IMG/VR virus record: IMGVR_UViG_2619619131_000001
Length of the DNA stretch: 10,506 nucleotides
DNA from: a virus
Taxonomy: Monodnaviria > Loebvirae > Hofneiviricota > Faserviricetes > Tubulavirales > Inoviridae
Strand: one strand, 5' to 3'
In this document: piece after piece, positions 4,612 through 5,037 of the stretch
Numbering within the stretch: the first letter of the stretch is position 1
How the letters are laid out: the number at the start of each line of letters is the position of its first letter
Notes under the pieces: generated by a model
The model's database searches: none
Told to the model about the DNA's origin: nothing
What the model saw: the letters and a program-made list of their open reading frames with translations, nothing else
Program-made: the position numbers and the translations under genes

Positions 4612-5037
4612 ATGAATCAAATTTACGACAGTTTTCCGTTTCCTTCCCCTGAGGGTTTTACCTCAGGCATGACAATGGCGGGATATTTTATTCACGCCAC
4701 TGTCATAAATGATGAGGAGTTAAAACCCACGGGTTCTCATTATAACCCTGAGGCTAAACCCAAATATGCCATTGTTATTGCCTATCCGTATGAGGACCGA
4801 AAATTAAAAGTCCGCCGTGAGGAGCATGAGCGATTTTCCTGTACTGAGGAGGATTTTAAATTTTTTAATTCATGTCCTGATTTGCAGGGCAAACCTGTTT
4901 ATCTCACGGTGGATGTTAACTCATGGTCGACAGGCTCAGAACGTCATGGTGTCTGGTATCGTTTTATTTCCGGCTCCATGAAACGTTTTGACGGTCAGCC
5001 GCTGGGTGCACTGCCCGCAGGTAAAGAAAAAGGCTGA
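4612..5037 (+). CDS. Hypothetical protein in the gene-V position (candidate ssDNA-binding/packaging protein; function not recognised)
   Basis: 141-aa ORF with strong SD GAGGAG (4598-4603) 8 nt before ATG 4612. Lies directly after Rep as gene V does in Ff phages, but is larger than classical gpV (87 aa). Confidence 0.7.
   Translation: MNQIYDSFPFPSPEGFTSGMTMAGYFIHATVINDEELKPTGSHYNPEAKPKYAIVIAYPYEDRKLKVRREEHERFSCTEEDFKFFNSCPDLQGKPVYLTVDVNSWSTGSERHGVWYRFISGSMKRFDGQPLGALPAGKEKG

Follow-up and report, generated by a model that had tools for sequence, protein, structure and literature searches.

A putative single-stranded DNA-binding protein in the gene V position of an Escherichia coli inovirus prophage

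Which protein does the work of the Ff gene V protein in a filamentous phage whose gene after the replication initiator (Rep) cannot be recognized from its sequence? We considered this question for a 141-amino acid (aa) protein, referred to below as the target, encoded by an inovirus prophage in IMG/VR record IMGVR_UViG_2619619131_000001; the whole stretch of DNA analyzed, 10,506 nucleotides (nt) in length, is called the window. A first-pass annotation, made from the letters of the window, had assigned the target to the gene V slot and suggested a divergent single-stranded DNA (ssDNA)-binding or packaging protein, or else an accessory function. The first of these suggestions is supported by the conserved position of the gene, by a natural exchange of cassettes with the ssDNA-binding protein RstB, and by a predicted OB fold. 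We consider it likely that the target is the phage's own ssDNA-binding protein and the functional counterpart of the Ff gene V protein, Pf1 gp5 and CTXphi RstB.

The open reading frame (ORF) at positions 4612-5037 on the + strand starts with ATG, ends with TGA and encodes a product of 141 aa. It is separated by a gap of 30 nt from the Rep gene, whose stop codon occupies positions 4579-4581, and it is preceded at 8 nt by the Shine-Dalgarno sequence GAGGAG. Homologues are 131-145 aa long and extend down to 24% identity. Where dS is unsaturated, the ratio of nonsynonymous to synonymous substitution (dN/dS; Nei-Gojobori, each pair including the window copy) is 0.11-0.14, which indicates purifying selection. 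Because of these homologues and this ratio we regard the target as a real gene rather than a chance ORF, in agreement with the earlier description of a reading frame that looks well expressed and has a strong Shine-Dalgarno sequence directly after Rep. The gene order of the window (Rep, 141 aa, 46 aa, 56 aa, coat, terminator-like hairpin, pIII, pVI, pI, pIV) is collinear with the M13 order II-(X)-V-VII-IX-VIII-III-VI-I-IV and places the target in the V position, as the first-pass annotation had proposed. Its remark that the protein is larger than its Ff equivalent also holds, M13 V being 87 aa long, but the size is not unusual, since the Pf1 ssDNA-binding protein has 144 aa.

A replacement that occurred between closely related prophages bears directly on the function of this slot. 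The most distant family member, P0023, is 24% identical to the target and is found in the prophage of locus L002 and in the first of two prophages in locus L003. The second L003 prophage has flanks near-identical to those of the P0023 prophage, with a pair of proteins of ~60-68 aa upstream and a 60-aa protein and the coat gene downstream. These prophages, which derive from the same metagenome assembly, are otherwise 80-95% identical, and the region that has been swapped corresponds to positions 3547-5959 of L002 and 11745-13519 of L003. When L002 is aligned by blastn with the second L003 prophage, the upstream homology (80% identity) ends 16 nt before the Rep start, and it resumes, at 90%, within the gene that follows Rep, 27 nt ahead of its stop codon. 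Between these two points L002 carries a Phage_GPA Rep together with P0023, whereas the second L003 prophage carries a 63-aa ORF, a Rep of the Rep_trans family (PF02486) and a 114-aa RstB-like protein that matches PF07459 CTX_RstB with 91.2 bits (E=5.3e-26). P0023 and the RstB-like protein have the C-terminal ending ...KS(S/T)GI(T/K)V(A/S) in common because the downstream breakpoint falls within the last 27 nt of the gene.

ssDNA binding by RstB is said to have been demonstrated biochemically by Falero and colleagues in 2009. Since a cassette of GPA Rep and P0023 in one phage is exchanged for one of Rep_trans and RstB in its close relative, the family member belongs to the replication cassette and corresponds in position to a known ssDNA-binding protein, with which it is interchangeable in related phages. 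RstB has been described as ssDNA-binding-protein-like and is needed for integration of CTXphi (PMC3545932).

The predicted structure points in the same direction. AlphaFold2 (AF2), run on an alignment of 21 sequences, among them members with 24-40% identity, gave a model with a mean predicted local distance difference test score (pLDDT) of 76.8, a predicted template modeling score of 0.70 and values of ~90 in the core strands. The modeled elements are beta1 (residues 18-31, with a short strand at 37-40), beta2 (52-62), beta3 (67-77), a helix (79-86), beta4 (95-108) and beta5 (114-118), followed by a low-confidence tail, modeled as disordered, that covers residues ~127-141. The order beta1-beta2-beta3-alpha-beta4-beta5 is the classical OB order, and the target is thus a small, presumably cytoplasmic protein with a predicted OB-type beta-barrel; such a fold is what structure prediction, one of the checks proposed in the first-pass annotation, had been expected to reveal if the protein binds ssDNA. 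Single-stranded DNA-binding proteins (SSBs) lead the Foldseek matches in the PDB with probabilities near 1 (8uzt_B, E=3.4e-3, TM-score 0.44/0.58), and phage SSBs rank first, again with probabilities near 1, among the viral models of BFVD. Nucleic-acid-binding OB folds, those of SSB/PriB type being the best, lead and dominate the structural match lists; no Ff gene V chain occurs among the best structural matches listed. The Ff gene V protein is all-beta. Because of the helix between beta3 and beta4, the predicted fold looks more like that of cellular SSB/PriB proteins than like the Ff gene V protein.

The genomic setting of the family is constant. In a tblastn survey of all fetched loci, a Phage_GPA-type Rep lies upstream on the same strand in 28/28 family copies with upstream sequence, and a Zot/pI gene lies 2.2-3.8 kb downstream in all 30 copies with enough downstream sequence to be counted (at least 3.5 kb). 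Together with the M13-like order, these counts place the family, in all loci, in a slot between a rolling-circle Rep and the genes for coat and assembly proteins. The gap between Rep and the family gene measures 23-386 nt, the exception being L003, where an IS21 element splits Rep. The slot is retained even by members at 24-39% identity, which come from Providencia, Salmonella diarizonae and unidentified metagenome contigs, and Rep identity declines in parallel with that of the family member, to ~42% where the member is at 33-39%. Even the two plasmid-borne copies lie inside inovirus prophages. Every locus examined is thus a filamentous-phage context, and homologues with a different function outside phages, which the first-pass annotation had named as evidence that would speak against its suggestion, did not appear.

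Two departures from the simple arrangement were seen in this survey. The IS21-family element (IstA/IstB) at positions 2593-4898 of L003 lies inside the Phage_GPA Rep of the first prophage and divides it into pieces of 464 aa and 88 aa, so that this prophage is probably replication-defective. In distant relatives at 33-37% identity (L004, positions 4528-4737, and L029) a 69-aa ORF stands between Rep and the OB-protein gene, which means that the cassette of Rep and OB protein is not always a strict two-gene unit; the same relatives have several extra small ORFs between the OB-protein gene and pIII.

The constancy of the slot is relevant to the suggestion that the target has nothing to do with DNA and is a moron or other accessory factor, such as an OB-fold toxin-like, host-modulating or superinfection-exclusion protein. 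The same core position in every related phage, over Rep identities from 98% to 42%, is the behavior of a core gene rather than of a moron. One-for-one exchange with RstB is likewise difficult to reconcile with such a factor, as are the structural match lists headed by nucleic-acid-binding OB folds and the lack of any match to the target in PADLOC (NCBIfam gave none either). We also found no signal peptide and no transmembrane or hydrophobic segment in the target, the maximum 19-residue hydropathy being 0.74; the protein should therefore be cytoplasmic. We consider a moron quite unlikely, and a reading of the target as a secreted toxin B subunit was rejected for want of a signal peptide.

Residues F16, G24, F26, K51, V96, W105 and G113 are invariant in 21 members, and the near-invariant positions include G15, K49, C77, W115, Y116, R125, F126, D127 and G128. 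The conserved aromatic and basic residues on beta1, beta2, beta4 and beta5 of the model would suit an ssDNA-binding OB surface, and 20/141 residues of the target are F, W or Y. The first-pass annotation had pointed to a C-x-n-C pair in the peptide FSCTEEDFKFFNSCPD (residues 75-90). Both cysteines are present, and they are the only two in the protein; they do not form a conserved motif, because C88, in contrast to the nearly invariant C77, is replaced in P0019, P0020, P0022 and P0023, and P0023 lacks C77 as well. A Cys-based metal-binding motif can accordingly be set aside.

Several observations weigh against an ssDNA-binding function. No significant sequence similarity connects the target to established ssDNA-binding families, and no Pfam family matches it above threshold. 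The nearest, PF17426 'Putative G5P', reaches 13.6 bits against a gathering threshold of 25 (E=0.075) and covers residues 85-122 only. Comparison of the family profile by hhalign with RstB, M13 gpV, Pf1 gp5 and VFJ-type proteins returned probabilities of 0.4%, 0.2%, 0.5% and 0.06%, respectively; the comparison had little power, since each target was a single sequence or a profile of three. The accepted AF2 model is based on a shallow alignment of 21 sequences, and a first run with 13 close homologues was unusable (pLDDT 38). Our literature search found no experiments on any family member. The isoelectric point of 6.1, slightly acidic, is neutral for the case.

The family-by-family searches give the same picture. 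None of 18 members matched PF02303 Phage_DNA_bind, the Ff gene V family, at E<=10 (threshold 25 bits; as a control, M13 gpV scores 144.5 bits), none matched PF07459 CTX_RstB (threshold 26.2 bits), and no match to the SSB family PF00436 was found in the family. Matches to PDB sequences by phmmer and hmmsearch were at chance level (aminopeptidase C and cruzain, E>=0.08). PF17426 recurs weakly in 10/18 family members, with a best E of 0.006, and we regard it as a recurrent lead at the sequence level rather than as membership. This family has been reported as a remote match of small ORFs that adjoin Rep on rolling-circle plasmids (PMC10378824); with hmmscan, the ORFs of pYUSHP14-6, an Acinetobacter rolling-circle plasmid named in that report, did not reach PF17426. 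The one strong match of the target is phrog_30648 (unknown function), over the full length of the protein (residues 1-141 to profile positions 1-141 of 141, E=1.6e-95), and all public names read 'hypothetical protein'; the first-pass annotation was right to call the protein unrecognized.

No helix-turn-helix or other regulator signature was detected in profile searches of the family, a result that concerns another reading, in which the target is a DNA-binding regulator, such as a translational or transcriptional repressor of Rep, with control as its main role. A position beside Rep is compatible with such a role, and the Ff gene V protein itself represses gene II translation alongside coating. 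On the other hand, the window already has a divergent repressor-like gene (phrog_2503) upstream of Rep, and the fold matches are ssDNA binders, not regulators. A dedicated regulator is therefore very unlikely.

How does the target compare with the proteins that fill this role in other phages? The Ff gene V protein (PF02303; M13, fd and f1) occupies the same slot, after Rep and before genes of VII/IX/VIII type, with the same operon logic; the OB-type beta-barrel, predicted for the target, would be common to both, and so, presumably, would coating of the progeny plus-strand for export. CTXphi RstB shares the slot and is naturally interchangeable between near-identical flanks, but it comes with another Rep family and has no detectable similarity to the target beyond the last C-terminal residues inside the recombination flank. 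The Pf1 gene 5 ssDNA-binding protein is, at 144 aa, of nearly the same size, belongs to no Pfam family and heads a block of small-protein and coat genes; unlike the target, its gene is not adjacent to the Pf1 Rep, and there is no sequence similarity by hhalign. Pf1 gp5 has a tail beyond its folded core, as does the target in the model.

With the Saetivirus-type V proteins (VFJ orf104, fs2 orf104, Dolos and the pre-CTX 'RstB-like' protein) the target has both slot and Rep type in common. The Rep of the window is ~30% identical to those of the nearest described phages, namely Vibrio phages VFJ, fs2 and Vaf1, Shewanella phage Dolos and a pre-CTX variant. For VFJ, Dolos and pre-CTX, the product of the gene after Rep carries the name ssDNA-binding protein, V protein or RstB-like, an annotation that, judging by the records, is itself positional rather than experimental. 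These proteins differ from the target in length (104-106 aa) and form a separate family with no Pfam hit. The Pf1 protein, with its 144 aa and its experimentally established ssDNA binding, is likewise without a Pfam family, so that neither the size of the target nor its orphan status is out of the ordinary for an ssDNA-binding role. The bacterial and mitochondrial SSB and PriB proteins (OB fold, PF00436) show 4-15% sequence identity to the target, whose tail, ...LGALPAGKEKG, lacks the acidic C-terminal tip of SSB.

Linkage to Rep of the kind seen here might also be expected of an OB-fold replication accessory, for instance a PriB-like or Rep-specific cofactor for Rep loading, termination or complementary-strand priming, with host SSB or another phage protein coating the progeny. 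The linkage cannot separate this reading from the coating one, because RstB and the Ff gene V protein likewise adjoin and are co-inherited with their Reps. However, the operon offers no other candidate for a coating protein: the ORF listing and profile searches of the window reveal no other ssDNA-binding candidate between Rep and the coat gene. The strong Shine-Dalgarno sequence and the tight packing before the structural genes fit an abundant protein. To our knowledge, moreover, every filamentous phage studied to date has a coating protein of its own. We therefore consider an accessory factor unlikely. All three alternatives (accessory factor, moron and regulator) are less consistent than an ssDNA-binding protein with the RstB exchange, the single coating candidate and the structural match list.

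As an ssDNA-binding protein the target could act as follows. It would be translated from the Rep-to-coat operon by means of the strong ribosome-binding site visible in the sequence, and would fold into one OB domain spanning residues ~18-126, followed by a short, flexible tail rich in Pro, Gly and Lys. By analogy with Ff, Pf1 and CTXphi, it would bind the plus-strand displaced during Rep-driven rolling-circle replication, possibly through the conserved F26, K49, K51, W105, W115, Y116, R125 and F126. If Ff biology is a guide, such coating would prevent complementary-strand synthesis, and with it the return to the double-stranded replicative form, and the nucleoprotein would pass to the export apparatus of pI and pIV, in which the binding protein would give way to coat protein.

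A further role may be considered in light of the attachment site. The window contains hipBA, a dif-like hairpin and then a full inovirus gene set on the + strand, as judged from the ORF listing and profile searches. The dif-like site begins 77 nt past the hipA stop and reads GGTGCGCATAA-TGTGACACGCG-TTATGTTGAAA, with an inverted copy ~55 nt downstream. Compared with the E. coli dif sequence, it matches 11/11 positions of the XerC arm and 9/11 of the XerD arm and has a longer central region. Folded as ssDNA, the 106-nt stretch 1660-1765 forms a bulged hairpin of -36.5 kcal/mol (z = -9.1; 0/200 shuffles were as good) that resembles the CTXphi attP(+) structure used in XerCD integration. Both CTXphi (PMC3545932) and the phage of the window are found at dif-like sites. 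Since the prophage lies at such a hairpin and CTXphi integration reportedly needs RstB, we can speculate that the target also stabilizes the ssDNA substrate for XerCD integration. A more ambitious proposal, which is conceivable but doubtful, is that the family represents an unrecognized SSB/PriB-like lineage of phage ssDNA-binding proteins coupled to P2-gpA-type Reps in dif-integrating inoviruses. Its members would have a dual role, as packaging chaperone and as obligatory cofactor presenting the attP hairpin (1667-1758) to XerCD, and might stem from a cellular SSB/PriB ancestor rather than from Ff gene V ancestry.

The family is small and of narrow distribution. When 1.84 billion representatives were searched exhaustively by profile, 9 proteins were found at E<=1e-3, and a search of 5.8 billion clusters returned 23 family proteins. 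The records name E. coli, Providencia, Salmonella enterica subsp. diarizonae and, both plasmid-borne, Citrobacter and Proteus as hosts, besides unidentified metagenome contigs; a scan of genome contigs with a narrow peptide pattern yielded one locus, in Salmonella diarizonae. Among 5,426 complete E. coli genomes, 48 carry the target gene, at a median of 2 places and at most 11 per genome. The exact protein occurs on 696 contigs, always as 'hypothetical', and identical copies in IMG/VR lie on viral contigs of 5.7-8.4 kb. Neither the gene nor the protein had a match, even at E<=1, in 50,697 deposited phage records (blastn, tblastn), so a cultured phage with a family member does not seem to be among them. 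We found no description of this E. coli prophage or of the protein in the literature; CUS-1/YpfPhi, a dif-integrating inovirus of E. coli and Yersinia, is a different phage, and its gene list names no secretin (PMC4266046).

For phrog_30648, the label 'putative filamentous-phage ssDNA-binding protein (gene V analogue)', with a predicted SSB/PriB-like fold, now becomes possible. It would cover a protein now named 'hypothetical' on hundreds of E. coli contigs, often in tandem and occasionally on resistance plasmids, and would add one more sequence-unrelated family to those that fill the gene V role (Ff gpV, Pf1 gp5, Pf3 ssDNA-binding protein, RstB and VFJ-type). The swap documents a clean natural exchange of whole cassettes of Rep and ssDNA-binding protein between inoviruses, which helps in annotating cryptic inoviruses and in thinking about the modular evolution of replication modules. 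The understanding of how filamentous phages work is unchanged; the proposed function is the ordinary one for the slot, and the novelty is modest.

The features of the window are collected in Table 1. Complete E. coli genomes contain tandem prophage copies of the same element; there PGAP names the target 'hypothetical protein' and annotates an identical Rep as a 666-aa 'replication endonuclease', starting at the ATG equivalent to window position 2581 and not at the TTG at 2479. The hydrophobic 46-aa and 56-aa proteins had no family match in profile searches.

Table 1. Positions of the target gene, its signals and the surrounding prophage features in the window.
Feature	Positions	Strand	Basis or remarks
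hipB/hipA	1-1589		
Dif-like site with inverted copy, candidate XerCD attachment structure	1667-1758	+	Prophage junction beside hipA; 92-nt forked hairpin as ssDNA
Repressor-like gene	1984-2199	-	phrog_2503; divergent, precedes the operon upstream of Rep
Rep, rolling-circle initiator, P2 gpA-type HUH endonuclease	2581-4581	+	PF05840 Phage_GPA, E=1.2e-48; phrog_91 'nicking at origin of replication', E=2.7e-128
Shine-Dalgarno GAGGAG	4598-4603	+	Spacer of 8 nt to the target ATG; read from the sequence
Target gene, 141-aa predicted OB-fold ssDNA-binding protein (putative gene V analogue)	4612-5037	+	
46-aa hydrophobic protein, gene VII slot	5042-5182	+	4 nt past the target stop; identical 141-nt coding sequence (CDS) in PGAP; M13 positional analogy
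56-aa hydrophobic protein, gene IX slot	5175-5345	+	Start overlaps the stop of the preceding gene; PGAP 171-nt CDS
Major coat protein precursor, gene VIII slot	5370-5612	+	Weak phrog_1646 'major coat protein', E=0.0054; PGAP 243-nt CDS
Terminator-like GC hairpin and T run	5628-5645	+	Directly 3' of the coat gene; Ff and Pf1 have a terminator in the equivalent place, after gene VIII (Pf1 annotation)
pIII-like adsorption protein, Gly/Ser linker repeats	5664-7262	+	PF05357 Phage_Coat_A, E=8.5e-9
pVI-like minor coat protein	7262-7621	+	phrog_1944, E=1.6e-4, and position
pI/Zot assembly ATPase	7639-8850	+	PF05707, E=2.5e-9; phrog_1675, E=1.2e-49
pIV secretin	9298-10506	+	PF00263, E=9e-25; phrog_1012, E=7.9e-115

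Some further observations concern the carriers of the element. The listed E. coli carriers are mostly human isolates, and the multi-copy strains suggest that related inoviruses form tandem arrays, or have inserted several times, within one strain. Both plasmid hosts are large conjugative resistance plasmids with an inovirus prophage of the target's type: in the Proteus mirabilis IncC plasmid pJZ49-tet(X4) (L034) it abuts an IS110 transposase and traX, and a Citrobacter youngae IncFIB/IncHI1B plasmid (L035) carries it in tandem.

Between the repressor-like gene and Rep, an 81-aa ORF (2334-2579, + strand) matches phrog_3104 (unknown function; E=4.7e-5). It is preceded by a promoter-like site at 2271-2300, which is flanked by a 12-nt inverted repeat (2258-2269 and 2303-2314). 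The gap between the two genes is 382 nt in the window and 148 nt in the close relative L001, where no gene is annotated, so the ORF appears to be a variable accessory. It was also considered as a candidate of gene V size and was rejected, as it lies upstream of Rep and outside the swapped cassette and has no annotated counterpart in L001.

Within the pIII-like gene, a 39-nt tandem repeat at 6342-6766 (10.9 copies, 91% matches) encodes GGS/GSG linker units, and local GC there rises to 0.69. The pIII-like protein has 532 aa in the window and 451 aa in the related prophage L001, and such length differences among related prophages probably arise through changes in repeat number. Downstream, a 107-aa ORF (8840-9163, + strand) overlaps the 3' end of pI/Zot and extends into the 448-nt gap that precedes the secretin gene, a GC-rich region that is otherwise non-coding. 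The Citrobacter plasmid record has a 324-nt CDS equivalent to this ORF; in E. coli 100416, PGAP places a 225-nt minus-strand CDS there instead, in a gap ~310 nt longer than that of the window.
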